From Octopus vulgaris (Eukaryota), in assembly GCA_951406725.2 (NCBI GenBank), contig OX597814.1, positions 107,074,001-107,138,000 on the forward strand: DNA of 64,000 nt. The letters run 5' to 3'. Positions 16,401 through 61,974 of this stretch are shown here, one piece after another. How positions within the stretch are numbered: position 1 is the stretch's first letter; the number at the start of each line of letters is the position of its first letter. The position numbers and the translations under genes were made by a program. The notes below the pieces were generated by a model. It had not been told where the DNA came from and did no database searches. It saw nothing but the letters and a program-made list of their open reading frames with translations.

Positions 16401-19400
16401 CGCGACTGACAGGCCATGGTCCAACCAAATCAAGGTGGACATGGCGAAAACAGGCCTCAGGAGAAGAAAACTGTCCAAGTGGAGCACGAACGTGTCTATG
16501 GACTTTAGCACTCTGGCACCTCAAACAAGAGCATGCCCAAGAGGTAATTGATCGTCGCATATTGGGCCAGAAGAACCGAGCAGTAACAAGCTTTACTGTG
16601 GCAGAGATACCCGGATGTGACAATGAATGAAGAACATCAAAAACAGAACATTGATGTTTCTCAGGTACTAACGGCCTGGGAGAACCGGTGGAGACGTCAC
16701 AAAGAATAGAGCCTTCTGCTGAAGGGAGCGGACGGTAGGCAAATTTACAATTGATAAACTTGGGCGAAGTTAAATCCAACTCCGCTAAAGGTGGTTGATC
16801 CTGCGAAATAGCAGTTAAGTCAATTGCTGCAGGAGAGGAAATGGAATTGACAGGGAGTCTAGAGAGAGCATCAGCTGGGACGTTCTCCTTCCCTGGCACA
16901 TGTCAAATGTCACTTGTAAACTGAGAAATATAATCCAGGTGATGGAAAGCACGAGGGGAGAGTTTATCCATTTTAGAAGATAGTGCAAACGTAAGGGGCT
17001 TGTGATCAGTATAAATCACAAACTCTCGTCCCTTGAGCTGGTGCTGAAAATGCCGAACTGACAGATAGATCGCTAGTAACTCACGATCAAAAGTACTATA
17101 TCTGCGTTCAGCAGGCTGCAGCTGGCAAGAAAAGAAAGCCAAAGGTTTAGTTTCACCATCTATGGTGTGCTGCAAGACAGCGCCAATTGCAGAATCTGAT
17201 GCGTCCACAGATAAAGTAAGTGGAGCATCAGGAGCCGGATGTGCTAGAACAGGAACTGAAGCTAGTTCCTTTTTAACTAACTCAAAGGCAGACAGTGCTT
17301 CAGCTGAAAGAGTAAGACGGGCGTCTTTTTTAGAATTGCCCTTTAGCATCTGCATTAAAGGAAATGACTTGTCTGCACACCGGTTTATGAAACGTCGATA
17401 GAAATTAACTATACCCAAAAAATGGTGAAGTTGATGCAAAGAAGAAGGTGGTGCGATGCGCTGAATTGCATCGACTTTAGATGAGAGAGGTTTGATTCCA
17501 CTCGAATCAATACAATGACCGAGAAAATCAAGAGATGATTGCCCAAAAACACACTTGTCTGGATTAATGCAAACACCATAGTTGCAAAGACACTGAAAAA
17601 GCTGAGACAAGTGCTGGAGATGATTTTCATGCATATCACTTGCGATGAGGATATCATCGACATAAGCAAAAACAAAATCAAGTCCACGAACAACTTCATC
17701 TATAAAACGTTGGAACGTACTAGTGGCGTTCCACAAACCAAAACTCATGTATAGAAATTCGAAACAACCAAAGAGAGTGGTAATTGCCGTTTTAGGAACA
17801 TCGTCTGGGTTGACCAGTATTTGATGATAAGCACGTATGAGGTCAACCTTAGAAAAATGGTACAGCCATGAAGATTCGCTGAAAAGTCATTCAGATTCCT
17901 AATTGGATATCTGTCAGGAATCGTCACAGAATTTAGACGCTGATAATCTCCCACCGGGCGAAAATCTGTATCCCCTTTTCGAACTAAATGAAGGGGTGAT
18001 GCCCATGGACTGGTGGATGGGCATATCAGACCAAGCTGGAGCATATGCTCAAACTCAGCCCTAGCCGTTTTAAGATGGTCAGGTGCAAGACGCTGTGGGC
18101 ACGAAAAAACAGGCAGCCCAGTAGTTGTAATGAAATGGAGTGTGGAGTGTATGGGTTTTGCCATTTTAAAAGTAATATCGAGTAGCTCTGGAAAAGAAGC
18201 CAAAAGAGAATGAAAAACATCTCCAGATGTAGCAACAAAAAATGTCGGGCTAAGAGCTGAATCGGTAGATTCACTGGTCGGCGTGGAGAGTGTAGTTGAA
18301 CTGTTGACTAGCCTCCGACGTCTGACATCTACCAATAGATCAAAGTTATTTAGAAAATCCACACCTAAAATAGTATGCGGAATGTCAGCAATGACAAAAA
18401 CCCACTGAAAATCTCGACAAAGATTTATGTCACAAGGTGTAAAGAGATCTGACCGAATGTGGCTATTGGTGATGAGTCAATAGCGTGCAAGGTAACATTA
18501 GATCGTTTTGGCCTGTCGGTTGTGAGACGCAGAGGCCAAATGCTGCAACAAGAACCACTGTCCATTAAACGACAGACATTAAACGATGATGATAACATTG
18601 CTAGTACTCTATCAGAAAGACCAAGATCCCTCTGCAAAGCTAAGTAATACTTGACCCTGATCAGCTGCTGACTCCTTACAGAGCTCAAGTGAGGCCCATG
18701 CTGCAATATCGTTCCCATCTTTGAATCAGAGCAGCTGTTGTGTTTACACAGGTAACTTCAACCACATCCAACCAAGTTGTTCAACTGAGAGACAAAGATC
18801 CACGCATCGACACATTACAAACCCTTGTCTCCTCAGGCGTATTGCTTCCCTTCTGTTTCTGCAACAACTTCTACAGATGCTGGCATGGCTGCAAGGTAAA
18901 GAAGCTCCCTTCACAACCGTATGGTTCCGGGTTCAACCCATTCATGGGGGTATTTTGAGCAAGTAGGTTTTACTTTAGCTGTGGATTGACCAATGTTTTG
19001 TGAAGGGAATTTGATAGGGAGAAATTGTATGGAAGCCCATTATGTGTGTGTGTCTCTCTCTCCACTGAGTTACATCCAAATAGCCTCTCCATCCAGGCCA
19101 ACCCACCATCATTTGACTCTTGTCTTTCCATCACTTCATTATGTTGCACAAAACTCTCTACCAGTCCTTCTTCCCCGCCACTGCAACTCTCTTTAATCCT
19201 GACCTAACATTAACCCAGCACAGACCAACTTGCACTGACCTCACCAGTCTGGGGGAACAGGCCAAAGGTTACTGGCACTGCCCCTCTCCCCACTCAGTGA
19301 AGCTTTTGTAAAAGCAGACTTATAGGGACAAGACATTCCAGTTGTAACCATCCTGTCTTTTTTAGTGTATCTAGGACTATACTACCCAATGTGTTCTTCA

Positions 19401-25232: not shown

Positions 25233-26850
25233 CGCACATGCTGGTATCACATAAAAATCCCTTGTGCTGATGCCACATATAAAGTTCCTGAGCTGGTGGC
25301 ATGGAAAAAGCATGCTGTACACTGTGTAAAGTGGTTGGCATTAGGAAGGGCCTCCAGGTGTAGAAACCATGCCAAAACAAGCAATTGGAGCCTGGTGCAG
25401 CTCTCTGGCTTGCCAGTTCCATGTCAAACCATTCCACCCATGCCAGCATGGAAAACAGATGTCAAATGATGAGGATATAAATATAAATAGAGTGAATTAC
25501 TGACCAATTGATTGCAGATGCTCCTCGGTGGTGTGGAAGAATGGAAGGATGGTAAACAATCGTTTGGTGCTTAGGGTAGAATATCACCTCTGTTGGAATG
25601 AATTGTGAGCAAAATGGTAAAACATTTAACTCAACATTAAGACTTTTGTATTGTTCAACCACTTCTGGAATTGGAACCTTTTTCTCTTGCCATCTTTTAT
25701 ACTTGAACACTGGGGTGCCATTCTTGTGCGCTTGGGCAGCTGCAAAATCAAATAGAAAGGAAACCAGATTAATGGAATCTTAGCAGAGAAATTATTAATT
25801 AAATAATTTTAAAGTGAATCAGAACCAGATGCTTTCACAGAAGACTGGAAATGATAAACACACACACACACACACCTTCTCAATTTACAACCAGGTTCCA
25901 GTCTGACTGACCAGTCATAAGTCGATCTGGTCGTATGTCAGGTTTATATTTTTCAACATTATTTTCATTCAAACGGGTTATAAAAATATAAAACACAATA
26001 ATTTAATCCATAATTTTTGTACATAAAGTGAAAAATACATAATGTGTATTCTATTGTACTGTAAATATCTGTTGAATATTTGTTCTGGTAGATAACGTTC
26101 TTCAATTAATTTATCAAAACTATCAACAAATTTTGGGGTTCCATCTTCTCCTGTAACACTTCCTGCTTCTCCTGTGACACGTATGTTATGCAAAGCAAAT
26201 CTTTTTTTTTAAATGCATAAACCACCCATTACTAGCCTGAAAAATCTTGTGCATAATCATCTCCTGAGCATGATTTTAAAGTCTGAAACAGACTTCTAGC
26301 CTTTGTTTGCACTGTGAGAAGGCTCAAGGGTGTGTTTTTCTAAATTTAATTTTCCATCCATATGAATAACAATTTCTCTGTTCCACGGAAGGGTTCCTGT
26401 CATTGTTTGGTTAAAACTGTAGACTTTGCAGGTGCAAAACCTTTCACAGCTTCACAAATTATTTCTTTGTCCTTAAGTATCATCATTACAATGGAATGTG
26501 ATAACTTCAAGTCATCTGATACTACATTCACTGTGGGATCATCTTCATTTTACAGTCTAAATCAATAGCCTGCCTCGACCCCTTAGCTGGCGCATCTGTA
26601 CATAAAAGCATTTCCTTTTACCAGTAATTTTAGGGGTATTTCAGATACTATTGCAACTGATGTTTGAAAGCAACTGAGAGTGGCTGGCAGTGGATGCTTG
26701 GGTCTGAGGGAGACCTGTATTGCCAGATGCTGCCACAGTTATCATATGCGCAACTGCCCAATTCCTGAAAACCAATATTTTGTTTATTTATTTTTTATGG
26801 TTGTAAGTGCAGATGGTCATAACTCGCATAGGTCCTAAGTCGAGGAGAAG

Positions 26851-27039: not shown

Positions 27040-30000
27040 TGTGTGTGCGTGCATGTGCGTGCGCGCATGTGAGTGTGTGTGTGTACTCTCACACACACAT
27101 ATATATATATATATTCATGAACTGTGGCACTCTGTCAGTTATGACGATGAGGGTTCCAGTTGATCCGATCAACAGAACAGCCTGCTTGTGAAATTAATGT
27201 GCAAGTGGCTGAGCACTCCACAGACACATGTACCCTTAACGTAGTTCTCGGGGAGATTCAGCATGACACAGAATGTGACAAGGCTTGGCCCCTTTGAAAT
27301 ACAGGTACAACAGAAACAGGAAGAAAGAGTGAGAGAAAGTTGTGGTAAAAGAGTACAGTAGGGTTCACCACCATCCCCTGACAGAGCTTTGTGGAGCTTT
27401 AGATCTTTTTGCTCAATAAACACTTACAACCATGATCCTATGACCAAGAGTCTGCTGCCCTAACCACTGGGCCATTGCGCCTCCACCATATTCATGATAA
27501 TATAAGTAATGTTTATCACTACCTAAACACAGGTGTTCTATAAGAACAGACAATACAGTTATTTTAACCCCAGGAGGACACCTCCTCTAGCTGATTGTTC
27601 AGTGTGTTTCACACTTGATATATATTGCAGCTATATATTCGAGCTATCAAGACCATCAGACTTTGTGGTTTCGACCTTATTATGCTTGTTGCAAAGTCAG
27701 TGAGTGTGTGTCACTTATTTTATATAAATAGCAAACTGGGGGTGAACTAATGCTATGTCTAGCAGATGAGTCTCGATCACTGAGGATGACCATAATAAGG
27801 TCAAAACCACGAGGTTTGGTGATCTTCATAGCTGGAATAGTAGGGAGTTCTCTCCCCGCTTGCATTATATATTGAGTGCAAAACACACAGAATAACCAGC
27901 TGGAGGAGGCATCCTCCTGGGGTTAAAGTAGCAGTATTGTCTGTTCCTCAAGAACACCCATGTTGAGATGGTGAGAAACATTACTTCTCAGTATAGATAC
28001 GGCTTTCATCTCTTATAGAGATCTTAACGAGAATATATAATTAATTATGAATTTATATCAATGTATATACTCATCTGTATACATATATATGTATGTATGA
28101 TATATATGAGGTCTAATCAATAAGGATCCGAACTGTTGCCAGAGTAACGAAGTTAAAGTACGCAGAGTGAAGCTGCTTGGCACAGATTAACCTTGAACTC
28201 TGTTGTGCATGCGCTCACTTTCACTGTTTACAGCAGTGCTTGGAAGGAAGGTGTGTAGCCTGTGATCGTTGCATTGACCATGACAGAAAGTTGAGCAGAG
28301 AATATGCATCAAATTTTGCCAAAAGCTTGGCGATACCTGCTCATGTATGTAAGCATGTGCATACATACACACATACATGTTATGTATGTAAATACACACA
28401 TGTATAATGCTGGACACCTGGTCATGGTGAACTTGGGTGGCAGAACTGTTGGTGTCTTGGATAAAATGCTTAGCAGCATTTCATCTGGTTCTAAGTTCTC
28501 AGTTCAAATTCCATTGAGGCTGGCTTTGCCTTTCATCCTTTTGGGGTCAAAAGGATAACATCAGTTGAGTATTGGTGTCGATGTAATGAACTTACCCACA
28601 ACTCTTATATTTGCTGACCCCTGTGCAAAGGCATCAAGCTGGCAGAATGGTCAAGCATGCCAAGCAAAATGCTGAGTGGTATTTCGTTTGCCACTACATT
28701 CTGAGTTCAAATCCCACCAAGGTTGACTTTGCCTTTCATCCATTCAGGGTCAATAAATTAAGTACCAGTGAAACACTGGGGTCGATGTAATCAACTAATC
28801 CCCTCCCCTGTATTTCAGGCCTTGTACCTCAGTAGAAAGGATTATTATTATCATTATTATTATTATCATTATTATTATTATCATCATCATTATTATCATC
28901 ATCATTATTATTATCATTATCATTATCATTATTATCATTATCAATATTATTATTATTATTAATATTATTATTATTATTATTAAAATTATTATTACAAAAG
29001 CGGTGAGGAAGCAGAATTGTTAGCACTCAAGACATATTTAGCAACATTTTCTCCAATTTCACGTTCTGAGTTCAAATCTCACCAAGGTTGATTTTTGCCC
29101 TTCATCCTTTCAGGGTTGATAAAGTAAGCACCAGTCATGCAATGGAGGCAATGTAATTGATCAGTCCTCTCCCTCAAAATTGCAGGTCTTGTGCCCATAG
29201 TAGAAAGAATTATAATAATTATCATGTAACTTACCTAGTGGATCCTCTCGCCCTTTGACGTCAGGGATAGTAAAGACTCCAGCAATTTCATGGCCAGATT
29301 TACGCAACAAGTGATAGACCTCAGCGCCAAAAACACTCTGTCCTATAATGGCAATTCTCATGCTGCTAAGTCTGGAAAAAAGAAAAACATCAGATCAACA
29401 AGGAATGGCACTCAAAGGATGGCACTGATTAAGAGAGAGCTTCATAATCTGTTCCATTGATAGAAGTATATCATAAAGAACGAATCAGGTTTGTCTTTAA
29501 AGAACAGCAAAAGGCTTTAGGATTGATTTGACCAAATGATGAACAACCACAAATCATCATTTAAGGCCTACACCAATGTCTAGGTGACATGTATGGCACA
29601 GTAAACACACACACACACACGAAGGCTGGAATGTCTTCTTTGCTGGTAGGAATAGATTGATGCCAACAAGAAATGACCAACTAGACTGCTATCTGGGTAA
29701 TATCGTGTGTAGAAGATGGGATAACACAGTGCAGTTATGAATTGGATCTTCAGTGACTGGGATAGAGAACGGTGGTAGGCTAGTGATATAGACTCAAAAT
29801 ATCTCGTGGAAGCGTCATCCAACCAAAGTACAAATATATGGGAAATTACCACCTGTATCATCTCTTGTGAAAGGTAGAAGAGTCCAGTTTTCTGGACATT
29901 GTTGTAGAGCTGAAAACGAGGTAATTTCTACTCTTCTCCTCTGGAAGCTATCTGCCTGCAATACTAGAGGGTGCACACTCTCCTACTCTAATGTAATCTC

Positions 30001-33000
30001 CAGGGATACAGGCATCCAGCAACGGGACCTCTGTAATGCTATGATAGACCATGAGGTCTGGCATAACATAATAAATTCCATTGTCTCGACCACAGTCGAA
30101 CAATGATGATGAACACAATGCATGTCATGTATTAATGTCTGAGTTCTTCTGTAGCTCAGGGAACCTCATAGCAGAGATTCCTCCTCCTACATTCCAAGAA
30201 ACCTCCATTCATACCCTCCCCCCAGTTCCTGTCCTGCATTGTTAACAATGTCAGGCAAGGGAGGTAACTCCCTATCTATAACACCCATAGCGCATTTCAG
30301 AATATCACAAAGGCCATTTTGTAATTTCCATTCAACCATTTTCTCTGCCAACTATTTCTGGGAGGAATTTGGTGATAAAGTTCTCAGGCTCCTCGACATA
30401 GGGTCCTATCAGAAACAACCATTGCTACACTTTCCTGCTGGATTCCCAAGCATTGCCGACTGAAATTACGAATATTTATCCAACCATCTCATACTTGTCT
30501 ACCCTTAGGTTTTCAGCCCGTTGACTCAGCTTGAAGAATGAAGAATTTGTTTTGCGACTCTCCCTGTGACATTCTAATCCCAGGTCCATATTACTAAATC
30601 TAGGATCTTTCAATGCAGAGAAGAAGTTGCAACTCAACCTGGAGAGACATCCTGATCTCTGAGCTATGCACCCTGTCAAGTAACGTTACCCCCAGAGAGC
30701 CTTCAAAGGACCCCCATTTTAACTGCTTCTATTCACAATCATACGCTTTCAGTTATTACCCAACATTTATTTGTTGCCACCGTCACCTTACTGGCACATG
30801 TGCCGATGGCACATGAAAAACATCATTTAAGCATGGTCGTTGCCGGTGCCGCCGAACTGGCCCCGTGCAGGTAGCACGTAAAAAACACCTTTTGAGCATA
30901 GACGTTACCAGAACCACCTGACTGGCCCTTGTGCTGGTGGCATGTAAAAGCACCCACTACATTCTCGGAGTGGTTGGCATTAGGAAGGGCATCCAGCTGT
31001 ATAAACTTTGCCAGATGAGACTGAAGCCTGGTGCAGCCTTCTGGCTCACCAGTCCTCAGTGGAACCGTCCAACCCATGCCAGCATGGAAAGCAGACGTTA
31101 AACAACAATGACGATGATGATTCATGACTTGAGGTGAAGATAATGATTTTGGCATTTTTACCAATTTCTCCTCTTCTAAGAATCAAATGCTGAAGCTGGC
31201 ACTTTACTTTTCCAGCATCTGCAACTCCAGCATCCAATTCAGCCTTTTGTCTTCCATCATCATCATCATCACCATTTAACATCCGCTTTCCATGCTAGCA
31301 TGGGTTGGACGATTTGACTGAGGTCTGGCGAACCAGACTCCAATCTGATCTGGCAGAGTTTCTACAGCTGGATGCCCTTCCTAACGCCAACCACTCCGAG
31401 AGTGTAGTGGGTGCTTTTACATGCCACCGGCACGAGAGGCCAGTTTGGTGGTACTGGCAATGGCCATGCCCAAATGGTGCTTTTTACGTGCCACCTGCAC
31501 AGGAGCCAGTCCAGCGGCACTGGCAAGGACCTCGCTCTAATGTTTCACGTATCACTTGTGAATATGAGCCCAAGATATGCAAATTCCACTTGTCTCAATA
31601 ATGTTCTCCTAACAAGCAAAGTGGACTGGGACGAGTTCTTTGAAAGAACCAATGTTTTCAGTCTTTGCAATCCTAATTCTCATCCCTGCCCTGCAGCACT
31701 TGGCAGTGAACCCATTCTGTGCAACCTGGAGATCACCTTCCGATGAACCAAGTAGCGCCATGTCGTCTACAAATACCATTTCAAAAACATTAACAGACCA
31801 ACACATAACAACTTGTAGCCCCCACACACGACTTGGTTGCCTCCGCTTCTTCCTCTTCTACCACCACTACTACAACAGTCACTGCTCTTCAAGACAAATT
31901 GGCCGCCACACCAATTCCACCTCTGTTCACCTGTCTCTCCTCCCCTTCCTCCTCCTCCCACCACCTTTACTATGTCTCACTGTCAAGTCCTTCTTCCCCA
32001 GTACTGCAGTCCTCTGGAACCACCACCACCATCACTGCATACATTGGCCTATAAAAGTCTGAGTTAAATGTCAACCATCTCAATTTGGGATGTCCTCACA
32101 AAGGTCATGGCTGGAAACCTTTCTCCTTTCTGGAATTAACGAAACATTTTATTTTAGCTGAAACCAAATCTTGTCACCACAATGTACATACAGCATGGCC
32201 AGCACTGGTGTTCACACACACACATATGTATATGTGCATAGATATACACATACATACATAAATACAAATACATGCACATATACACACGTATATGACTGTA
32301 GAGATAGATGGGCAGATATACATACACACACAGATACTTACACATAAATGCATGCATAAATACACATACATGCATACACACATATACATGTACATAAACA
32401 CATAGAAGCACACAAATATATACATATATCCACACCTGAATACATACGTATGTACACACACATATATACACATGCTGTTGGTTTGATCAGAACGTACATG
32501 CTTGAAGTAAAAACATCAGAATCACAATAAATCATCTCATTCTTAATTCCAGACAATAATGATGATGATGGTTGTTATTTAGCTCCAGGTTATTTCTGCT
32601 TGAGCAGACATATAATTAAAGACTAACGCGACACCATCACTTTCTTCAATTCAATCTATGGCACCTCTCTCACTCACTCTCATACACTCATATAGTACTT
32701 ATCTAGCAATCTATATCAACCCATTTCTCCCAGTCTACACATCTCAAAAAAAAACCCTACCTACTTACATCCCTATCTTTCAACACCCACCCACCTGTCT
32801 CTTAGCCTGGACATCCATCTACCATTCATATATATATATTATATATATATAGGTGCAGGAGTAGCTGTGTGGTAAGTAGCTTGCTTACAAACCACATGGT
32901 TCCGGGTTCAGTCCCACTGGGTGGCACCTAGGGCAAGTGTCTTCTACTATAGCCTCGGGCTGACCGAAGCCTTGTGAGTAGATTTGGTAGACGGAAACTG

Positions 33001-36000
33001 AAAGAAGTCTGTTGTATATATGTATATGTATATATATGTATGTGTGTGTGTCTGTGTGTGTCTGTGTTCATCCCCCCAACATCACTTGACAACCGATGCT
33101 GGTGTATTTACATCCCCGTAACTTAGCAGTTTGGCAAAAGAGACTGATAGAATAAGTACTAGGCTTACAAAGAATAAGTCCTAGGGTTGATTTGCTCGAC
33201 TAAAAGCGGTGCTACAGCATGGCCACAGTCAAATGACTGAAACAAGTAAAAGAGTATATATATATATATATCAAAACAGGAGATTGGAACAATGTTTTGG
33301 TATTCTGTATTCACCATTACATGTGTTTCATTTGCTAATAGGAGTTACAATATTGTACATATAGCAGGAAGCATGTATAATATTGTACATATAGCAGAAA
33401 GCATGTATAATTTTGTATCTCCTATAAGCAAATGAAATGGTGAATAAATAATGCCAAAAATTTGTCCACACTCCTGTTTTGGTATTATTTCTATGCAGAA
33501 AATATTTCCCAGTATTTTCAATTCTTATGTATTCCTTGCACAAATATAGGCCTCACTGAGGCAATGACTAGTGACCGAGACCTTTGGAAAGATGCTGTGC
33601 TTGAGAAGACTCGGCAAGCCAAATGAGACAATAACCTCATGGCCTATGCCAGGGGTGTAACCAGCCCACTTATGCATACCTTTCCTTCATTGGACACTAA
33701 ACTTTGCTTGTGAAGACCTGTTGAGGCAAGTGAAATCGAAATCAAATTCGATGACTGGCATCCGTGCTAGTGGAGCGCTAAGAGCACCATCTGAGCGTGA
33801 TCTTTGCCAGAGCAGCTAACTGGCTTCCTTGTTGGTGGCACGTAAAAAGCACCATTTGAGCATGATCGTTACCAATGTCACCTTACTGGCACTTGTGCTG
33901 GTGGCACGTGAAAAAACATTTGAGTGAGGTCGTTGCCAGTGCTGCTGGACTGGCTCCTGTGCAGGTGGCACATAAAAAACGCCATTTGAGCATGGTTTTT
34001 GCTAGTACCACCTGACTGGCCCTCATGCCGGTGGCACATAAAATGCACCCACTACACTCTCGGAGTGGTTGGCATTAGGAAGGGCATCCAGCAGTAGAAA
34101 CTCTGCCAGATCAGATTGGAGCTGGTGCAGCCATCTGGTTCGCCAGTCCTCAGTCAAATCATCTAACCCATGCCAGCATGGAAAGCGGAGTCAAACGATG
34201 ATGATGATATAACATACAGATCTAAGATACTGGAATTAGTAGATGTACTTCAAGAGGACACACACACACACAGAGGCAGATAAACTAATCTCAATAAAAA
34301 CAAACCACTACAAACCATTGATTCCGATAAATATTTTAGCAACTCGTTTATTATCTTCATTAAAATTCATTAAGTTTTATTGCACTTGTTACTATTGTTG
34401 TTGAAGCTGCTGCTGTTGTTGTTGTAGTAAACAAACGAATGATTACAAAAGGTCGCAATGACCCAGAATTATGTCTTCAGTGACAACTGTTGACAAATTA
34501 TTTACATAACACATCTCCTTCCTGTCATCCCTGCTACCACTCCACCATTACTACCAAGTTCAGGTCAACCCGGAGAAAGCCTATCTCTGATAACAGCCAT
34601 TCCAAATGTGACCATTCAGCCTTTTCTTTTTCTTCAGTAGTACATAGGACACTTTAATCACACCAGGGAAGACAGAACAAATGATGTCCTGTTGTGAAGG
34701 TAAAACACATCCAGGAGAGATTGGAAAATGGCTGAGGATAAGAACATCCAACCTGAGGAAACAATGTCGAGAACTAGAAAACCATGAATGAGAAATGGTA
34801 ACCTGATTCGTCTTAGAAAAAATTCCTTTTAATTAAGAACTTCCTTAAGGTATGACAACCTGTTCAACCCATGCCAACATGCAAAACCAAGCATAAAATA
34901 ATAATGAGGATGATTTTGATATAGATAGGTGATGTATCATTTTGATAATGTAGATATTTGATAAGATTTTTATAACACAGGTGCCAGCACACCTGTGTGG
35001 CATAGGTATACAGGTATGGTTGTATGGTTGAGAAGTTTGCTTCCCAATCACACGGTTTCCGGTTCAGTCCCATTGCATGGCACCTTGGGCAAGTGTCTTC
35101 TACTATAGCCCTGAGATAACCAAAGCCTTGTGAATGAATTTGGTAGATGGAAACTGAAAGAAGCCCCCATCATATATCATCATCATCATTTAATGTCTGT
35201 TTTCTATGCTGGCATGGGTTGGGTGGTTTGACAGGAGATGGCGAACCGCAGGGCTGCACCACGCTCCAAGTGTCTGTTTTGACATAGTTTCTATAGTTTC
35301 CTAACACCAACAACATTACAGAGTGTACTGGGTGCTTTTTATGCTTGTGTGTGTGTCTGTCTGTCTCACTCTCCTTGTTTTGAAATCACACGACAGTTAT
35401 CAACAAGTGTCACATCACAAGTAGTATTGTTCATTTCTAATAGTCTACAAAACCACATCCAGTCACAGAGAAATATTATCTCGCTTGGAAACAAGTGAGG
35501 GTTGGCAACAGGAAAGGCATCCAGACATAGAAAAACCTGCCTTAGCAAACCCCATCCGACTCCTGCAAGCATGGAAAGTGGATTTTATGACGATGAGGAT
35601 TATGTTAATTACAGTGATTTGCATAATATTGAATCAATTATTTTTTATTGTATGTATATCCCACCACTAATCACTCAACTGGAAAACTTAATTTACCACC
35701 ACAATGACTAGAAATAGCGACCAGAAATAATGACTTCTGAATAATGATAAGAGTGGAATGTTGGGACAGAATAAAGCAATAATCTCGACAATATAGACAA
35801 CATTCACAGAAACAATACAAAGTACTCATGTGTGTGTTTCTATATGTAAAAACACATTCTGTGTGTATTTCTATATATACCTACATGTTGTTGTTGCTGT
35901 TGTCGCTGTTTAACCCATTTCAATATGATCCGGTAAATCTATGATGAAAGACATTCCATCTTTGACGGTTACATCTATTTTGGCCATAGTGTATCCAGGT

Positions 36001-37586
36001 GTACATTTGTAAATGTGTCCCTCTTCTTTCAAGATAGTTGGTTGCCACTTCTTGTAGATCAAGCCACCAAACAAAACTTACTGGAGGCCTTATATACATT
36101 CATATGGCTTCCCAACCACATGATTCTGGGTTCAATCCCATTGCATGGCACCTTGGGCAAGTGTCTTCTACTATAGCCTCGGGCCAACCAAAGCCTTGAG
36201 TACCCTAGGGGGTCCGACAAGTCATAAATCCCTGATAATTATCCATCATATGTTATTAGTCATTTGATGAGATATCTATATATATATATATATATATATT
36301 ATCATATATTATCATCATCAATTAACATGTTTTCTTTGTTGGCATGGGTTGGACAGCTTGGTAGGGGCTTGCAAGCCAGAAAGCTGGAGCAGGCTCCAAT
36401 TGTCTGTTTTGGCATGTCTATCGCTCGATACCTTTCCTAATGCCAACCACTTTACAGAATGGACTGGATGCTTTTTACATACCTCCACAATATGTGCACA
36501 TATGTATGTGTGTGTGTATATCATCATTATCATCATCATCATTTAGCGTCCGCTTTCCATGCTAGCATGGGTTGGACGGTTCAACTGGGGTCTGTGAAGC
36601 CAGAAGGCTGCATCAGGCCCAGTCTGATCTGGCAGTGTTTCTATGGCTGGATGCCCTTCCTAACGCCAACCACTCCGTGAATGTAGTGGGTGCTTTTTAC
36701 GTGCCACCCACACAGGTGCCAGACGGAGCTGGCAAACGGCCACGGACAGATGGTGCTTTTTATGTGCCACTGACACGGGGGCCAGGCGAGGCTGGCAACG
36801 GCCACGAACGGATGGTGCTTTTTACGTGCCACCGGCACGACGTGCAAATAAAACGACCATGAGGGTATATAAACTTACATTTGTTTTTGTTTTTTTCTAG
36901 AATTGCTGAATGTGTATTGTATGATACAAACAAAAAAGTGATAGTTCAAACATAGTATCGCCATTAAAACAGCAGAAAAATTGGATATTATTAGCCTTAT
37001 AAAGGTGGGAAAAGTTGTCAACAAACAGCATATATATATACGCACACATCTCCCCGCCCTGCACCCTGGTGAAGAGGATTGATTGGCAATAATCCAGTGC
37101 TGGTACCATGTAAAAAGCACCCAGTACACACTGTAAAGTGGTTGGCGTTAGGAAGGGCATCCAGCCATAGAAACCAAGCCAAATTAGACTGGACCTTGGT
37201 GCTGCTCTTCAGCTTGCCAGCTTTGGTCAAACCATCAAACCCATACTAGCATGGAAAATGGACATTAGCCCTTTCATTACCAATCCGGCTGAAACTGGCT
37301 CTGGCTCTGAAGGAGAAATGTCTTGTTTTCATAAGTTTTGAATTAAAATCTTCTACCAAACCTTGGTCACAATTTATGCTCCTAACACTAGTTTAATGAT
37401 AACTAAGTTATTTTACTAAATTCTGCCAGCACCGCCCTAACTGGCTCCCATGCCAGTGGTATGTAAAAAGTACCATCCAATCCTGGTCGATGCCAGCCCC
37501 CTCTGGCCCCTGTGCCACTGGCACATAAAAAAAGCACCTACTACACTCACTACACTTCCTCATGCCAACCACTCCAAGAGTGTATG

Positions 37587-37624
<38 letters not shown>

Positions 37625-40600
37625 CACACACACACACACATATATATATATAAATGTAAGATCCAGGGATTGAGATGTAGGAAGAAAGTTAGCTTCAAGC
37701 AAATCATAGTAAATATTAAAAAATCTTTCAGGAACAACAGAGGTTTATTGAGATGGAAGGTTGTGGATTTTTTCTTATTGAAGTATGATGAGCTGAAAAA
37801 AGGTTTTATATTTCACGGTAGGCGACCAGGGTTGCCGGGTGTGCAAATAAGAATAGAATAGTTAAGGAATAGAGTAGATAAGATCCGGGTTACATATGTT
37901 TAATAGTGAGCAGAACCTTGGAAGTGGTAAATATCCAAGCGAGGTGTATATCGCAGGCTACTCTTCAGGTAAAAGATATCTTGATTAAATGAAAGTTTAC
38001 ATTGTCGCAAGGAGGTACATGTTGATGCATGGCAGATTCACTCATACACACACTCATTCACACATACACACACACACACAGTTTGTTAAATTAGAATCTC
38101 TATGATATACTGATCAGACTAATTAGAACCGATATTAATTACTGGCCTAGATGAGTTCTAACTCTGAGCACATGTAAGTGATAGATGATGGAATATTGTA
38201 ATATCCCCCACCACCACCACCACCAAAATTAAATAAATAAATGTTATATAAAACATGGTCAAGGGCCAAACTAAATATTAGTTACTATTTCTAGAGAGTA
38301 AAAACGACCGCAAAGAGTTTTCGTTCTGAGTTTGTCAGCACCATATTTTGCGGTTGGACCCAACTTAACAAATCTATGATCAAAGACGTTCCAGCCCTGA
38401 CCATTTCGCACAGGACAGACATTTTACTGCCTGATAAGTTTTCTCTTTTTTTTGTTAGAAGGGCGGGTGTGATTTAAGAGAAATTTCGCTACTATTTCTA
38501 GACGGTAGAACGACCATGTAGAGGCTCCTTTGATGGCGAGGGCGGAGTTATTGGAAGGTTAAATTGTTGGAAAAAGAACAAGACATGTTCTGCAACATCG
38601 TAGACACATGCTGTGTTAAGTTCTTAATGGATCCTACACGTTGTTTATACTTGAATAACAAAGGTGGATATATTTACAGCAAGTGCCTGGCCTAGGTATG
38701 TTAATTATGTCACTAAACAACTTCTCAAAGGAGAAACCTCTAAGAGACTATTCGACCTGTTAGAAATAGCAGCCAGATCTCTCTCAAAGTACACCTTACT
38801 GTTGTGATAATTCACTCTTTTGATCATTGGTCCGCACGATCGAAGCTGACCAGCTTCTGTTTATTGGGAGCTATTATTAGCAGTTCTACGCAAATACTCA
38901 AGCTGGAATAACATTTAACTTGTGTCACTGCGACCGTTATTAAATATATTTTTGTTGCTTAATTCGGGATTCAGCAGCGAAATAGAGAGAACTGCTAACA
39001 CACAAACTGTGTTAAACTACCAAAGCTTTGACTACCTTTAGCTTTTCGTGTCTGTCTCAGAATAGAGAAGAGAGTAGGGCACTGAGTTATTTATTATATC
39101 CTTCCTGTTGTATACATTTGAAAGTCGTTGGTTGGTATACAGTATGTTATTTCAACAATTCATTTATAGATTTTATCAGTTGTTTGGCTGCGTGGTTCTG
39201 GTCTAGAATTATTGTTAAGGGTCGTATTCTATCGTCTTTGATGTTTTAAAGTTGTTGTGTTTCTGTTACAACCACGAGATACATCAATAAATGAAGGATT
39301 AATATATTTATATAATAAATGTAGCTAAACCCTATGGTATCATATACAAAACACCAATCCCAAATGCAAGTGAAACTGTCCGGGTTTTTCCTCAACTCTG
39401 CTGGTTCCCAGCATATACAAAACTCCACGCAGTTTTCAATGGCTCGTTACCTCATTTTCGCATACCTTGCTTGTCATTTTGCATTAATATTTATAGGGCG
39501 GACCATGACCACCCTCAAGCACCTATTCTTTATCTTCAACGACCAGAAGTCTTCGCTAGTTAGGAATACCTACCTTCGCTAGTTAGGAACAAGACTCCCA
39601 AACAGGCAACCGAGTGATGTTCTTTGTACGCGAGTGCGTGTCTAATTGAATATTCAGCAAAAGTACAACCAACCAACTTACGATGTTCGACTAAAACAAC
39701 AACAACAAAAAATATGTCGGGTGACTCCGTCTACATCTTCACACTTTTACGTGTGGGGAGGGAGGGTGTAATAAGTTATCTTCAAAGCAGACAAACTATT
39801 CAAGTAAATACCTATTTCTTTACTACCCACAAGGGGCTAAACACAGAGGGGACAAACAAGGACAGACAAACGGATTAAGTCGATTACATCGATCCCAGTG
39901 CGTAACTGATACTTATTTAATCGAGCCCCCGAAAGGGATGAAAGGCAAAGTCGACCTCAGCAGAATTTGAACTCAGAACGTAACGGCAGACGAAATACGA
40001 CTAAGCATTTCGTTCGGCGTGCTAACGTTTTTGCCAGCTCGCCGCCTATTCAAGTAAATATAAATGTCGATGTGAAGCTCTGTAAAAATGAGGGCCGAAT
40101 CTGGCTGCCAGGCTATTTCTTATCAATTCTCACGAGTCAGCAGTTTGTTTAGACTAGGACAGACACAACAGTTAAATATACATAAATAAATAAATTCGTT
40201 GACACTAAACATGATTTTAGTTAATCTAACCGTTAAACAACATATATGCATGCACACAACACTTATGCATATTCATGAACAGGAAACAAAACAATGTCGA
40301 AGGAAAGAGAATCGGTAAAAATCGCGAGTTTGGATAAGTGGGTATATTATGGAGAAGACGGACCCAAAGAGCTAAAGAAAGGGTTTCCATATTTTTTAAC
40401 ATATGCTTAAGGAAAAAAAACCCAGAACAATGAATTGCTTGATTTGCTGAAAGCTAAGACATGAATATAAATTAAATAAATTCCGGGTAATTATTTTATC
40501 GACTCCGAGAAGATTGATACCAACAGAATTTGAACTTGGATACATTAGCTTCGCTAAACACGACGTCTTATCACTAGAATACTTCGATAAAACCAAAGAA

Positions 40601-41593
40601 GTTTATTCGATTTTTAGTATGTTACTGGCACTTATTTTATCGAATAAAATAAGTGATTTTGAGAAAATCCCAGCAGGAAGGTCGACTGCCATCGGGATGT
40701 ACCGAACAAAGTAGAAGGGATAAATTTAAATAGGCCTATACAAGTGAATTTTAAAGGGAACCCAGGCAAAAATAAACATTCCTTTAATTTGTGTGTCTGT
40801 GTGATTGTCCAGGTATGATAGGAAGAAGAAGCCTGGTAGCCCTACCTTTTGTCTCTGGGTTAGAGGCAGATGTTTTTTTATGGACCATTTTTGCGATTCT
40901 TTCGCTCCCCTCACAGATTCTAAATGCTGCGCTGACGACAACAACAGCAAAGTTTTCCGACGTAGAATGAAGGAAGTCGCAGAATTATTGCCAAATATAA
41001 ATAAATTACTTTTTTAAACCCAAAATATTCGAGATATTTGGAGGAGATGGTCTGCTAACCACGAAGTTGATGATGCCTCGTCACTAAAGTGAGGTGCATG
41101 GCTGTTCTAACGTCTCAGCCTCGCCATCATTCTTCCTGCCAGTCTTCTTGGATTGTTTCTGTTCATAAAGTGGAAAATATAACTCTAAAGATAAAAAACG
41201 GCAAATCAGAACCGAATTTACCTCTTTATATCTCCACTAGCGAATGTATATAAGTGCCGATATGTATTTAATGTTCATGCGTATACAAATTATGTCTAAC
41301 TTGTTTAAATTATATTTATCATTTATATAAAACCGGTTACAAATAAAAGTTGGTGAAAAAGTTTTATAAAGTTATGTTCGTGTGTTATAAAGTTATGTTC
41401 GTGTTTTCTAAAACTGTTTTATAACAAAGACTGGAATATTTCAGAGATAATGAGGTGTGTGGAAGGTTGCACGATAAAAGATAATTGTGAATATAATTTG
41501 AAAAACACAAAACATTTTGTCTTACCTCCTCCGTAAAGGCAATATTCGACTAACTGTCCCAGCTGACAGCGATAACAACCTGTTTATATACAT
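142..41593 (-). CDS. ALDH1L1/ALDH1L2: 10-formyltetrahydrofolate dehydrogenase (ALDH1L family), spliced gene, 12 coding exons in window, 3' part beyond left edge
   Basis: Exons 41526-41593, 29235-29371, 25505-25739, 12364-12529, 10658-10759, 10017-10106, 6243-6377, 4751-4879, 3459-3544, 1411-1558, 1032-1151 and 142-204 join in frame through GT-AG introns (1479 nt, about 493 aa). Motifs: [19 protein letters not shown] (His106), WADDGLDTG (Asp142), [11 protein letters not shown] (carrier Ser), [13 protein letters not shown] (ALDH start). Confidence 0.95.
733..993. repeat. Long inverted repeat (arms about 125 bp, loop about 12 nt)
   Basis: TTGTGTCTGGGGAGAGT...TTGCAACCTTTTCAAT is mirrored by ATTGAAAAGTTTGCAA...ACTCTCCCCAGACACAA. 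Confidence 0.9.
1032..1151 (-). CDS. ALDH1L1/ALDH1L2: ALDH1L exon 11 ([40 protein letters not shown])
   Basis: CACCAG| acceptor, TCG|GTGAGT donor, 120 nt; start of the ALDH domain. Confidence 0.95.
1411..1558 (-). CDS. ALDH1L1/ALDH1L2: ALDH1L exon 10 ([25 protein letters not shown]...[13 protein letters not shown])
   Basis: TTTTTAG| acceptor, GCT|GTAAGT donor, 148 nt. Confidence 0.95.
1952..2102. repeat. Near-perfect palindrome centred at 2027
   Basis: ...CTGACAAAACTCTGTGC-T-GCACAGAGTTTTGTCAG..., arms about 75 bp. Confidence 0.92.
3459..3544 (-). CDS. ALDH1L1/ALDH1L2: ALDH1L exon 9, acyl-carrier domain ([29 protein letters not shown])
   Basis: TTCCAG| acceptor, AG|GTAAAT donor, 86 nt; DFFxxGxxS phosphopantetheine attachment motif. 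Confidence 0.96.
4751..4879 (-). CDS. ALDH1L1/ALDH1L2: ALDH1L exon 8 ([20 protein letters not shown]...[15 protein letters not shown])
   Basis: TTTTCCAG| acceptor, AAG|GTAAAG donor, 129 nt; GKMIxAS and ELTAEE motifs. Confidence 0.93.
4938..5268. mobile_element. hAT (Charlie-type) MITE
   Basis: TIRs CAGTGGTTCTCAAC / GTTGAGAACCATTG. The 8-bp flanks TACTAAAA and GTCTAGAG have diverged but both keep a central TA. Confidence 0.75.
5404..6085 (+). mobile_element. Non-autonomous Helentron/HINE-like element with internal duplication
   Basis: Starts AACTAGC and ends with a CA-rich tract then TTTATTATTACAGAT. The block ATTACCATTAATA..TGTCTGTTTATA occurs twice (about 5429 and 5791). Confidence 0.45.
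6243..6377 (-). CDS. ALDH1L1/ALDH1L2: ALDH1L exon 7 ([10 protein letters not shown]...[19 protein letters not shown])
   Basis: TTTACAG| acceptor, ATG|GTAAGC donor, 135 nt; LFGND motif. Confidence 0.94.
6530..7401. repeat. Cluster of three inverted repeats (6530-6756, 6769-6958, 7286-7401)
   Basis: Each pair of arms reads as a reverse complement, e.g. ATTTAAAGTAAACAGAAAATGGAGAAATATTGATCA / TGATCAATATTTCTCCATTTTCTGTTTACTTTAAAT. Confidence 0.9.
7693..8106. mobile_element. Non-autonomous DNA element with about 175-bp tandem duplication and GGGTTAA end (piggyBac-like terminus)
   Basis: AACAGAAATATGGTAACAAA(A/G)GGGTTAAAGTGATC occurs twice (about 7894 and 8062); related sequence at about 37265-37425. 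Confidence 0.45.
9390..9866. repeat. 31-bp minisatellite, about 15-16 copies
   Basis: Unit TAAGTCTTCTAGCGATCCCTCC(C/T)CGATGCC(G/T); GTCTTCTAG recurs every 31 nt from 9421 to 9855. Confidence 0.97.
10017..10106 (-). CDS. ALDH1L1/ALDH1L2: ALDH1L exon 6 ([30 protein letters not shown])
   Basis: TTTCAG| acceptor, CAG|GTAGGT donor, 90 nt; [11 protein letters not shown] motif. Confidence 0.96.
10658..10759 (-). CDS. ALDH1L1/ALDH1L2: ALDH1L exon 5 ([34 protein letters not shown])
   Basis: TTTCCTAG| acceptor, AAA|GTAAGA donor, 102 nt; QPEEGAxYE motif. Confidence 0.95.
12364..12529 (-). CDS. ALDH1L1/ALDH1L2: ALDH1L exon 4 ([28 protein letters not shown]...[14 protein letters not shown])
   Basis: CTTTGTAG| acceptor, ATG|GTAAAT donor, 166 nt; catalytic Asp motif. 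Confidence 0.97.
13864..14298. repeat. Nested inverted repeats: about 40-bp outer arms enclosing a SINE-derived palindrome (13979-14141)
   Basis: Outer arms ATAGCTGCAGCATTGTACAGATCAGGGGTTGGCAATAGATAG / CTATCTATGGCCAAGCCCTGATCTGTACAATACTACAGCTAT. Inner arms AAGTCGATTATATCGACCCCAG... / ...CTGGGGTCGATGTAATCGACTT. Confidence 0.85.
15718..18575 (-). mobile_element. Degenerate Ty3/Gypsy pol (protease-RT-RNaseH-integrase), no gag or LTRs seen
   Basis: Protease LMDSGS (about 18560), [11 protein letters not shown] and YVDD, RNaseH VDAS/ELLAI/TDHKPL, integrase HHCC plus DLVGP/TDRG/VERFH, GPF motif near 15780. Several frameshifts and stops. Confidence 0.95.
19901..19944 (-). ncRNA. Minimal type-I hammerhead ribozyme motif
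   Basis: Minus strand: ACAC-CTGAAGA-A-GGCTG(loop)CAGCC-GAAA-TG-TT-GTGT; stems I and II pair. Confidence 0.65.
20004..20266. repeat. Hairpin whose right arm is interrupted by an RTE-tail repeat (about 20107-20250)
   Basis: AAGATTATATAGGACTGAGGTAACTC...GAGTTACCTCAGTCC [insertion] AGTCCTATATAATCTT. Confidence 0.8.
20298..20340 (+). ncRNA. Minimal type-I hammerhead ribozyme motif (one core substitution)
   Basis: TTGAAC-CTGTGGA-A-GGCA(loop)TGCC-GAAA-TA-TC-GTTCAA; perfect 6-bp stem I and 4-bp stem II. Confidence 0.6.
22134..23400 (+). mobile_element. Decayed RTE-clade LINE (RT and C-terminus)
   Basis: [42 protein letters not shown] and VLYGEL motifs, broken by stops and frameshifts. Confidence 0.88.
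24187..24226 (-). ncRNA. Minimal type-I hammerhead ribozyme motif (one core substitution)
   Basis: Minus strand: TCTTTT-CTGCTGA-A-GAGC-TTAG-GCTC-GAAA-CG-TA-AAAGA. Confidence 0.65.
24306..24971 (+). mobile_element. Non-autonomous Helentron/HINE-like element
   Basis: Starts TACTAGC...ACCCG...CGGG and ends ACAGACAGACATACATTCTCAGTTTTATATATATTGAGAT; same layout as 5404-6085. Confidence 0.45.
25505..25739 (-). CDS. ALDH1L1/ALDH1L2: ALDH1L exon 3 ([12 protein letters not shown]...[13 protein letters not shown]...[17 protein letters not shown])
   Basis: TTTTGCAG| acceptor, TG|GTCAGT donor, 235 nt; formyltransferase HPSxLP motif. Confidence 0.97.
25895..26850 (-). mobile_element. Tigger/pogo (CENP-B-like) transposon remnant
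   Basis: Fragments [41 protein letters not shown] and YLPEQIFN; decayed terminal repeats. Confidence 0.8.
27503..27986. mobile_element. About 480-bp fold-back element containing a hammerhead motif (Penelope pseudo-LTR-like)
   Basis: Arms 27503-27684 and 27791-27986 are diverged reverse complements. A hammerhead lies at about 27776-27820 (+), and its 3' half is repeated in the left arm (-). Confidence 0.75.
27776..27820 (+). ncRNA. Type-I hammerhead ribozyme motif (GAAA decayed to AAAA)
   Basis: ATCA-CTGAGGA-T-GACC(ATAATAA)GGTC-AAAA-CC-ACGA-GG-TT-TGGT. The inverted copy at 27655-27684 keeps GGTC-GAAA-CC-ACAA-AG-TC-TGAT. Confidence 0.7.
28105..28343 (+). mobile_element. Mariner 5' fragment (TIR, UTR, transposase N-terminus)
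   Basis: TA followed by TGAGGTCTAATCAATAAG terminus; decayed [21 protein letters not shown]. Confidence 0.75.
28843..28995. repeat. (TAT/CAT)n microsatellite
   Basis: Direct reading of the sequence. Confidence 0.95.
29235..29371 (-). CDS. ALDH1L1/ALDH1L2: ALDH1L exon 2 ([45 protein letters not shown])
   Basis: Polypyrimidine acceptor ...TTTTTTCCAG|, internal ATG at 29361-29359, donor G|GTAAGT; matches the ALDH1L1 N-terminus. Confidence 0.96.
29815..30110 (+). mobile_element. RTE-like LINE 3' fragment (same family as 48270-48690 and 57425-57650)
   Basis: [23 protein letters not shown], ending ACAATGATGATGA. Confidence 0.8.
30490..31790 (-). mobile_element. Old RTE-like LINE remnant interrupted by two opposed repeats
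   Basis: [20 protein letters not shown] (about 31640-31780) and a decayed [15 protein letters not shown] segment (about 30560-30660). Confidence 0.6.
32851..33255 (+). mobile_element. tRNA-derived SINE family A, full-length copy; further copies at about 2970-3290, 12810-13180, 21910-22060, 42710-43120, 43195-43600, 49946-50265, 57650-57900
   Basis: A-box-like TAGCTGTGTGG, B-box-like GGTTCAGTCCC, CACCT(T/A)GGGCAAGTG core, internal TA/TG microsatellite, GAAACAAGTAAAAGA tail. Confidence 0.85.
33548..34208 (+). mobile_element. RTE-type LINE 3' end with sub-repeated 3' UTR and (GAT)n tail; many shorter copies (about 3313, 4207, 10855, 25225, 30775, 31256, 36520, 51843, 56410)
   Basis: ORF end [24 protein letters not shown], repeated GGTGGCACGTAAAAAGCACC units, GGAAGGGCATCCAGC core, AAACGATGATGATGAT tail. 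Confidence 0.8.
39450..39660 (-). promoter_or_regulatory. Candidate alternative promoter / non-coding first exon of ALDH1L
   Basis: On the minus strand a GC box CCGCCC (39501-39496) abuts TATAAATA (39495-39488). Donor-like sites GAG|GTAACG (39451/39450), AAG|GTATGC and AAG|GTAGGT lie nearby in CpG-retaining sequence. Confidence 0.3.
39808..40047 (-). mobile_element. tRNA-derived SINE family B; further copies at about 10290-10470, 28630-28840, 46315-46530, 55250-55615
   Basis: Minus strand GGCGGCGAGCTGGCA...GTTCTGAGTTCAAATTC..GAGGTCGACTTTGCCTTTCATCC...AAAGAAATAGG. Confidence 0.8.
41526..41593 (-). CDS. ALDH1L1/ALDH1L2: ALDH1L coding exon 1: putative mitochondrial targeting presequence [22 protein letters not shown](R)
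   Basis: ATG at 41593-41591 and donor AG|GTAAGA at 41526/41525. The phase-2 end joins the first A of exon 2 to give R-L-S-S-M-R-I-A in frame. The peptide is Arg/Ser/Leu-rich with no acidic residues. Confidence 0.75.
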
Positions 41594-42913
41594 GGGCAAG
41601 CTAATATATTCATATATAAGAGGGTGGGTTTGTTCTTATCCTATTATCGTTGGCCTACCAACTAGAATTGTTTTATGTTGCTATATATTTATGTCAAACT
41701 TTAAGTATTAATGTGTGTTTTTAAGTCCTCTCATCCGCATACATATATCTAATATTTATATATATATACACTCGTGTATAAACAGCTTCTGGGCACGTTA
41801 CCTATGTTAAGACTTTTGTTATGGTGTATGTGTGTTGTAAATACACTTTTTTTTTTAGGTTTTCTGTATATTATATGTATGGGTGTGATAGAGGCTAATC
41901 CTGTAATTACAAAAGACAAATTATGCCTGTATATCACACCTGAAGTCCTAAACCATGAGTCCCTAGTTATTAAATTATTCTATGAAAAGGCTGTGGTAAT
42001 AATAATAATCCTTTCTGCCTGTGTATGCCGACCTCAGCAGTTAGAGATGACGAGGCTTTCGAAGGGCGAAAATTAAACAAAGCAGCCAGGAGAAGAAAGA
42101 GTTAAAGTGTGTATGGGGGTGGAAGACGGGTGCGAGACGACGGGTGCAGACGCAATTGCTTGTTGGGTGAGAAGGAAGAATGTATTCAGTAAATAAGATT
42201 TTGACGAAGATTTAGCGCTAAAACTAGAATTTTGAATGTGATTGGTATAAGCAGTTTTCTTTGGATGTGTTACAATATGTACCCTTACATCTATTTAATT
42301 CTGAATTTGCTTGACTCAGCGTAAGTCTGGGATTATTCGTTTACCAAAGTCATCAGTTCTTGAGTTAAAGAAGAGTGAATTCTTTAAAAACCAATTTTGT
42401 AGTCCAGCCTCAAAATATTGCAGACGAAAACTTCATTGGAGGTAGGGAGGACCGAACACATGCTATATCGATTGTTGCAATCTGTGATTAGAAGTTGAAA
42501 TTTAGTGGTATTTCGTGCCATTACGTTCTGATTCAAATTCCGCTGAGGTCGTTTGCCTCCACGTTTGGAAACCTTCAGAAGTTACGCACTGGGGTCGATA
42601 TAATCGACTTAATCCGTTTGTCTGTCCTTGTTTGTCCTCTCTGTGTTTAGCTCCTTGTGGGCAATAAAGAAATATATATCGTTTGTGCAACGATATATCA
42701 AGTTTATGTATTCTCTTTTACTTGCTTCAGTCATTTGACTGCGGCCATGCTGGAGCACCGCCTTTAGTCGAGCAACTCGACCCTAGGACTTATTCTTTGT
42801 AAGCCCAGTACTTATTCTGTCTGTCTCTTTTGCCGAACCGCTAAGTAACGGGGACATAAACACACCAGCATCGGTTGTCAAGCAATGCTAGAGGAACAAA
42901 CACAGACACACAA

Positions 42914-46555: not shown

Positions 46556-47970
46556 TTTTCCTTCTTTCTTCAAAATTTCTTCCGTTTCTCGCCGGGTATT
46601 TTCCGTACACCTAGGGCAGAGAAGCTCATTGCATGCATTCCCAGATTACACACGCAAATTCACAGGTAAAATATGTATTTAAAAAATTAATGAATAAATA
46701 AATTCATGAATGGATGTTGGTTTCACAGCGATAATGCTCTTCTCAGTACATGAGCCGTTCCAGTTAACACGATTTTTTGCACTTCCTGTAGGGATGGTAA
46801 GTCTGGTATCATTTTCAAATAGGTTTCAGTGCCTTTTTTTAATCATTCCTAGAGATCCTACAATCACTGGTACTGTAGTCGCCTTAAGATGCCACATTTT
46901 TTCAATTTCTATTAGCAAGTCTTTATATTTACTGATCTTGTCAAATTCTTTCGCCGCTATATTGTGATCGCAAGGAATACTCATGTCAATTAATAAACAC
47001 ATCTTTTTTGTCTGATCTTTTATAATAATATCCGGTTTATTAGCTTTTATAGTTTTGTCGGTATGTACGGGGAAGTCCCATAGAATCGACACATTTTCTC
47101 CTTCAATCACAGCTTCAGGATAGTGTTTATACCATTCGTCAGCAGTTTTGATTTTATAATGCCGACATATTGTCCAGTGTAAATACTGGCCGACTCTGTA
47201 ATGTCTTGCTTTATATTCTACAGGTGCTAAGATTCTACACACTGAGATTAGATGGTCTATTGTTTCAATCTCATCGTTACAGAATCGGCATTTTGGGTCA
47301 GCTCCATTTTTTATCACATTGGCTTGGTAGTTCCGGGTTAATAAGCTTTGGTCTTGAGCAGCTAAATATGAAACCTTCACTCTCCGCTTTTAGCCCTGAG
47401 CTTCGTAACCATTGGTGCGTGTGTTTCTGGTCGACATCAGCTTGTTTGCTACGGGCTACATAATTGCCATCTGCTAGCTAATTTTTCATGTGCTTTTATC
47501 TTTGCAATTAATTTTATTTTATTTACACCAGCAGTTGGCGCATTTCCTTCGACCTGATCAATCTGGTGGGTATCTAAGAGATCAGTAGCGAATTTTTTGC
47601 TCTCTTTCAGAATAGAGTGAATTGTTTTCGGTCTTTCGTGTTTTTCAACAAGTTTTAGCATCCAATCGTTGGTTGCTTCAAGGTATTTGGCCAGTCCGAT
47701 TGTGGTGGTTTTGTACGTAAGTTCAAGCTGGATCAAACCTCGTCCTCCTTGAGCTCTGGGAAGGTAAAGACGATCCACGTCTGCCTTTGGATGGTTCATC
47801 TTATTACAAGTCAGTAGCTTCAAGGTATTTGGCCAGTCCGATTGTGGTGGTTTTGTACGTAAGTTCAAGCTGGATCGAACCTCGTCCTCCCTGAGCTCTG
47901 GGAAGGTAAAGACGATCCACGTCTGCCTTTGGATGGTTCATCTTATTACAAGTCAGTAGCTTGCGGATTT
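46556..47970 (-). mobile_element. 5'-truncated R4/Dong-like RLE non-LTR retrotransposon
   Basis: HPKADVDRLYLPR..GGRGL, AAQDQSL, CRFC..ETIDHL..C, KPDII, LIDMSIP and QKIVLTGTAHVLRRAL*. The 3' UTR ends in AATAATAATGATGAT. Confidence 0.9.
47679..47962. repeat. 142-bp tandem duplication inside the LINE
   Basis: CAAGGTATTTGGCC...CAAGTCAGTAGCTT at 47679-47820 and 47821-47962, nearly identical. Confidence 0.95.
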
Positions 47971-61954: not shown

Positions 61955-61974
61955 AATAATAATAATAATAATAA

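Follow-up and report, generated by a model that had tools for sequence, protein, structure and literature searches.

The ALDH1L gene of Octopus vulgaris has a basic leader spliced onto a retained start methionine, and therefore likely provides an enzyme for the mitochondria as well as one for the cytosol. Taking genomic sequence, contigs of sequencing runs and comparisons with other animals together, we lean towards a reading in which the leader would be a replacement presequence and this single gene would supply both compartments. Dual targeting had been proposed in an earlier sequence-only reading of the stretch of DNA analyzed here (the window: 64,000 nucleotides of contig OX597814.1); of that proposal, the one gene, the spliced leader, the retained Met and the two-isoform layout (found in 13 of 13 species pairs) stand, whereas a leader of the ALDH1L2 type does not.

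Gene structure, junction and copy number

The leader is encoded on the minus strand by the 68 nt running from the ATG at 41593 to a GTAAGA donor after 41526. The acceptor consists of a polypyrimidine tract followed by CAG, with its last base at 29372, and the exon at 29371-29235 continues in frame. Splicing 41526 to 29371 yields a 26-aa leader and then Met27, the second ATG beginning at the eleventh base of exon 2; this is the start Met that was said to be kept behind the leader, and it is indeed kept. When spliced, the 12 GT-AG exons of the window (Table 1) reproduce residues 1-493 of P0121, a public O. vulgaris protein, with 0 mismatches; 24 blocks cover P0121 at the locus, and the remainder of the gene extends about 34 kb beyond the start of the window. 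The leader had been called hidden, but the public records XP_029642163.1 and CAI9715713.1 already begin with it, and the public proteins of O. vulgaris and O. sinensis, of 926 aa, both carry it. RRLSS had been described as a motif of the leader; only its RR lies in the leader exon, LSS being encoded in exon 2 and Arg23 made by the junction.

Table 1. Features of the ALDH1L gene and of its upstream region, in positions of the window
Feature	Position	Strand	Remarks
First exon, long form	41526..42040	-	at least 515 nt (68 coding, about 447 of 5' UTR); one X5 contig, joined to exon 2
Leader exon, coding part	41526..41593	-	codons 1-22 and 2 nt; donor AG/GTAAGA, phase 2; matches the N-terminus of P0001/P0121
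Intron 1	29372..41525	-	12,154 nt, GT-AG, repeat-rich
Exon 2	29235..29371	-	Met27 after 10 nt (ATG 29361, A at -3); formyltransferase-like domain begins here
Exon 3	25505..25739	-	joined to exon 2 in contigs of X1 and X14
Exons 4-8	12529-12364, 10759-10658, 10106-10017, 6377-6243, 4879-4751	-	
Exons 9-12	3544-3459, 1558-1411, 1151-1032, 204-142	-	
uORF	41584..41613	-	9 codons, out of frame, overlaps the leader ATG
Four further upstream AUGs	41956, 41744, 41740, 41734	-	five in all in the 5' UTR
TATA-like box TATATAAA	41583..41590	-	within leader codons 2-4; putative inner promoter
Inr-like words	41548..41566	-	26-39 nt past the TATA-like box; candidate start of an mRNA lacking the leader
Alternative donor CAG/GTGTGA (candidate)	41935..41942	-	exon end 41940; scores 8.4 (donor in use: 10.4); splicing here would bypass the leader ATG

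The 41526/29371 junction had been predicted from the DNA alone, and it is present in intron-skipping contigs of 5 of 6 sequencing runs, drawn from 5 studies under 2 organism labels; that these runs are RNA is a guess, none being recorded as such, but their contigs do skip introns. The 12,154-nt skip (CT..AC on the plus strand) occurs as a joint in 3 of the 4 runs of one set, namely X2, X5 and X16. Beside exon 2, the contig sequence of run X14 equals the leader exon at 30 of 30 letters and that of X1 at 15 of 16, the mismatch at 41542 falling in a synonymous Leu codon, and the contig of the sixth run, X13, which was not counted for the junction, holds 543 further letters beyond exon 2. The 41542 change is T to C on the mRNA strand, thus not A-to-I on the sense strand, and is probably an allele. 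The proposed exon of 68 nt holds as the coding part, in frame, but not as the whole exon, because one X5 contig covers 41526-42040 and the exon form is at least 515 nt; this long first exon is unique in the 184 kb searched.

Transposon remnants are found elsewhere in the window. Intron 3 holds a broken LTR-retrotransposon remnant in several frames, on the same strand as the gene (15804-18476, minus strand), with Pfam matches to RT/RNase H (16906-17886) and integrase (16087-16902). Broken non-LTR (LINE-like) remnants lie at 58529-63481 (plus strand) and 47452-47937 (minus strand), with a weak zf-RVT match, below cut-off, at 62621-63481.

A single ALDH1L gene had also been anticipated, and the paralogue count by genome searches agrees with it: exon 2 has one genome match, exon 3 has one real match among the 4 listed, and the remaining PF00551 matches in the genome translate, by reading of their motifs, to GART-like and MTFMT-like sequence; these searches scored the best candidates only, among which a 70%-identical paralogue should have appeared. 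Invertebrates reportedly have one ALDH1L gene, as Krupenko is said to have stated in 2015. The Pfam domains PF00551, PF02911, PF00550 and PF00171 (Formyl_trans_N, Formyl_trans_C, PP-binding and Aldedh) all lie above cut-off in one chain. The motifs YHPS, WADDGLD, GxxSxD, SLELGG and GENCIA are those that we take to hold the catalytic His and Asp, the phosphopantetheine Ser, and the ALDH Glu and Cys, respectively. They align with 7rlu, and the end-to-end alignment with PDB 7rlu/7rlt begins exactly at Met27 (1399 bits). As judged from these comparisons, the gene is the only octopus ALDH1L (10-formyltetrahydrofolate dehydrogenase) and its enzyme is intact.

Presequence-like properties and origin of the leader

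As had been noted, the leader has five Arg and no acidic residue. Its 18-residue helical moment of 9.2 falls within the range of 21 other leaders (5.7-12.1) and above that of 4 incidental extensions (4.2-7.1), and is reached by 146 of 2890 random open frames; by composition, the leader ranks in the top 4% of these frames (117/2890). Moment, charge and lack of acids together, a strict presequence test that was set after the sequence had been seen, are attained by 16 of the 2890 (0.6%), and a loose test is passed by 303 (10%). For the 11-residue moment, the value of 0.49 is lower than in any of the 21 other leaders and is attained by 34% of random frames. The site RRL/SS is one that we take to fit the R-3 cleavage motif. 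Going by these features, the leader probably could function in mitochondrial import.

The same stretch could also be an incidental in-frame ATG in a promoter or a non-coding first exon, with coleoids having lost the mitochondrial form, the octopus enzyme being cytosolic from Met27 and the 926-aa annotation being just the longest ORF, which we hold to be less likely, though a serious rival. An open in-frame ATG is found at least 45 nt upstream of 31 of 196 random donors (16%), and comparable extensions exist in three other genera, RefSeq listing non-presequence extensions of ALDH1L in Babylonia, Haliotis and Panulirus. A TATA-like box lies within codons 2-4, the leader ATG has a weak context and is preceded by five upstream AUGs, one of which overlaps it, there is no homology with the conserved leader, and squid and cuttlefish records are without a basic leader. 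However, a frame this basic, acid-free and amphipathic is uncommon by both the loose and the strict test, the sole leader sequence change seen (a single site) is synonymous, and long transcripts with the ATG exist (X5 and, by length, probably X13 and X14).

For a conserved profile, 25 leaders of molluscs, a lobster, a tunicate and vertebrate L2 were aligned on their R-x-F-S core. Against this profile the octopus leader reaches 1.9 bits, a score attained by 118 of 922 scored shuffles of itself; of seven held-out leaders, five score 7.3-14.7 and the other two 6.8 and 0.3. Furthermore, the octopus junction is in phase 2 and those elsewhere in phase 0, as inferred from protein isoform pairs (Babylonia, Mya and fishes), in which Babylonia X1 reads through the donor as K/VS, and the models of Mya and of fishes run on through acceptors whose last residue is Gln. 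The match to the ALDH1L2 presequence implied by the sequence-only reading is therefore abandoned: the lack of alignment to the conserved leader and the different phase leave a replacement or an incidental extension as the origin of the octopus leader.

A strongly diverged ancestral presequence exon, with a shifted splice site and dual targeting inherited, would fit the position in the gene, which is the same as in other molluscs, and the richness in Arg, Leu and Ser; moreover, RRLSS loosely recalls the R-x-F-S core, and the leaders of ctenophores likewise depart from the core profile. We consider this very unlikely, since the profile score is at shuffle level, the passage from phase 0 to 2 requires a frameshifting slide, the R-x-L-S word straddles the junction instead of lying mid-exon, and the cuttlefish appears to have yet another phase (inferred from P0124/P0125).

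Searches for homologues of the leader, which returned 9 and 5 matches, gave none beyond two Octopus records, those of O. vulgaris and O. sinensis; these two leader-sharing species differ at only 5 of 926 residues. Gene calls in Logan often cut leaders, and absence of homologues there therefore proves nothing; the ESM Atlas gave no usable match. Save for a repeat look-alike, no exon of the ancestral type was found in intron 1 or in 82 kb upstream. The look-alike (33640-33582, minus strand, in intron 1) was rejected: it lies within a high-copy repeat (2075 candidates, of which 40 were scored, at 94-100%), its ATG is common to many repeat copies, its donor is weak (0.9, against 10.4 at the leader exon), and a chance match among 4371 scored equals its 6.7 bits. 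This repeat nonetheless spells a convincing presequence-like frame from the shared ATG, and it is a possible source of cryptic targeting exons.

A basic leader was found in 0 of the 15 listed (of 20) proteins of the squid/cuttlefish cluster, and it is also absent in records of Aplysia, Physella and Elysia; loss without replacement therefore seems to occur. Given the 15 proteins without a basic leader and the failure to find an ancestral-type exon in octopus, coleoids probably no longer have the ancestral exon. In three cuttlefish/squid proteins (P0125, P0136 and P0003), uncharged extensions of 5-11 residues look like the latter half of the ancestral leader (4.0 bits), either as a possible relic of it or because the gene calls may be truncated.

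Leader and inner methionine across animals

The layout of a leader ahead of a kept Met, whose conservation in other molluscs had been named as a check, proved widespread. In all 13 species pairs tested (O. sinensis, ten bivalves and gastropods, and two decapod crustaceans, picked because both forms are listed), the leaderless isoform is an exact suffix of the leadered one; these pairs are automatic RefSeq annotations, all named cytosolic, and not localization experiments. O. sinensis has a 926-aa isoform X1 and a 900-aa isoform X2, the latter being the exact suffix. Leader and Met also occur together in records of Styela, Bolinopsis, Mnemiopsis, Mytilus, Pecten and Ylistrum, plus some further records. 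The residue at the domain start was counted in 218 redundant records, with 38 lacking the N-terminus set aside: leadered records of the vertebrate L2 type have Leu or Ile, never Met, in 41 of 41, and other leadered records have Met in 48 of 67, a figure that includes short squid/cuttlefish and incidental extensions, with a Met at most 5 residues upstream in 15 of the remaining 19. In Clytia (P0201), Leu is at the domain start and a Met lies three residues upstream; P0026, P0035, P0037, P0112 and P0021 have likewise changed the domain-start Met to Leu or Ile, with a Met three residues upstream, as if the inner start had been kept by a shift.

Leaderless records only were found for Aplysia (4 accessions), Physella, Lymnaea, Arion, Elysia, Lottia, Pinctada and two unionid records, which may reflect loss or incomplete models. 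The heterobranch gastropods P0010, P0025, P0044, P0029 and P0218 have leaderless 900-aa forms only among the records listed, and an independent loss of the mitochondrial form is possible in them.

In a quick tree of 35 leader-trimmed rows (SH-aLRT only, midpoint-rooted, careful search unfinished), L1 and L2 form sister clades, with Styela, a tunicate having leader and Met, outside them and the molluscs apart; octopus ALDH1L groups with the molluscs, outside L1+L2 and thus outside the ALDH1L2 clade. It has no R-x-F-S leader and retains Met27 where ALDH1L2 has Leu/Ile. Because leader and Met are widespread together, dual targeting was probably already a property of the gene in the animal ancestor, its two tasks being divided between genes in vertebrates; most simply, both starts would have been present before the duplication and parted after it, and dual targeting as the general rule for invertebrate ALDH1L appears likely. 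Passages of PMC7654619 describe ALDH1L2 as having arisen in vertebrates by duplication of a primordial ALDH1L1; unlike that account, our comparison suggests that the leader is older than the vertebrate L1/L2 duplication.

The octopus gene shares with the vertebrate pair of cytosolic ALDH1L1 and mitochondrial ALDH1L2 the full three-part enzyme with the same four Pfam domains, and differs from it in being a single gene, outside the L1+L2 clade, with both leader and Met. With the ALDH1L of bivalves, gastropods, decapods and tunicates it shares an upstream leader exon, a Met at the domain start and, as annotated in O. sinensis, a leaderless suffix form; their leaders, however, have the R-x-F-S core in common with ALDH1L2 and apparently join in phase 0, whereas the octopus leader has no such core and is in phase 2. 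TRNT1/CCA1 offers a further parallel: according to PMC12718117, vertebrates rely on leaky scanning for it, yeast has two transcription starts and Dictyostelium two paralogues. Both cases involve one gene with a presequence, putative in octopus, ahead of a second in-frame AUG, and paralogues instead in some lineages (PMC12718117), but octopus ALDH1L seems in addition to have exchanged its presequence. The main text and 6 supplements of that article do not mention ALDH1L. Within the folate pathway, SHMT2-alpha is a parallel, as described in part of PMC8773781. No report of dual targeting of an invertebrate ALDH1L was found in our literature search, whose scope left out key ALDH1L papers.

Candidate routes to two enzyme forms

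The leader ATG has C at -3, and Met27 has A. The leader-coding stretch contains TATA-like and Inr-like words. Of 62 such pairs in the window, this is the only one followed by a strong donor; 10 of 196 donors have a TATA the same distance away. The TATA plus Inr pattern has 21 matches at 8 places in the AT-rich window, mostly TA microsatellites, and as the test was post hoc and the pattern is common, it is therefore only a lead. Contigs of X1, X16 and X2 end within the leader-coding stretch (41543, 41550 and 41585), and X5 reaches 42040; contigs cannot show starts, and these ends, which fit an inner start, count as no more than a hint. An inner start at the Inr-like words would result in a UTR of roughly 45 nt, with Met27 as the first AUG.

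The upstream donor ending the exon at 41940 has no junction among the listed joints. A second first exon joining exon 2 had been offered as one route to the short form and was not seen: the depth at exon 2 equals one contig in 4 of 4 runs, and contigs drop rare forms. Nor did a leaderless mRNA of O. vulgaris show up directly in these runs. All contigs with visible letters join exon 2 to the leader exon, as would be expected if the product were all mitochondrial, with one transcript, the leader always translated and Met27 an unused relic. To this we give very little credence, since isoform X2 of O. sinensis is leaderless, Met27 has the better context while the leader ATG stands behind five AUGs, and Met has been replaced where the enzyme is mitochondrial only (the 41 of 41 records).

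For a replacement presequence feeding both compartments, the following course of events would apply. Transcripts starting at or above 42040 would include the ATG at 41593 and give a 926-aa precursor, to be imported and cut near RRL/SS. Translation from Met27 would yield the 900-aa cytosolic form, with transcripts that begin within the leader-coding stretch as its most likely source; transcripts using the 41940 donor would be an alternative route, and leaky scanning past the five upstream AUGs and the weak leader ATG would aid the use of Met27. In evolutionary terms, the ancestral animal layout would be leader and Met, with the leader later disappearing from vertebrate ALDH1L1 and the Met from ALDH1L2. 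In the octopus lineage the ancestral leader exon would have gone, and the leader seen today would be a substitute derived from first-exon or promoter sequence.

The mechanism of one gene with two N-termini is already known, and the octopus leader is in public annotation. Beyond this, we tentatively propose that ALDH1L has been dual-targeted from the base of animals and that L1 and L2 split existing jobs, while coleoids would have lost the leader and octopuses regained import through a promoter-born presequence whose first codons are a TATA box. If true, the usual view of ALDH1L2 as a vertebrate novelty would be reversed, "cytosolic" invertebrate enzymes would also feed mitochondrial NADPH and formyl-folate control, and the octopus would be a datable case of the loss of a targeting signal and its de novo replacement.
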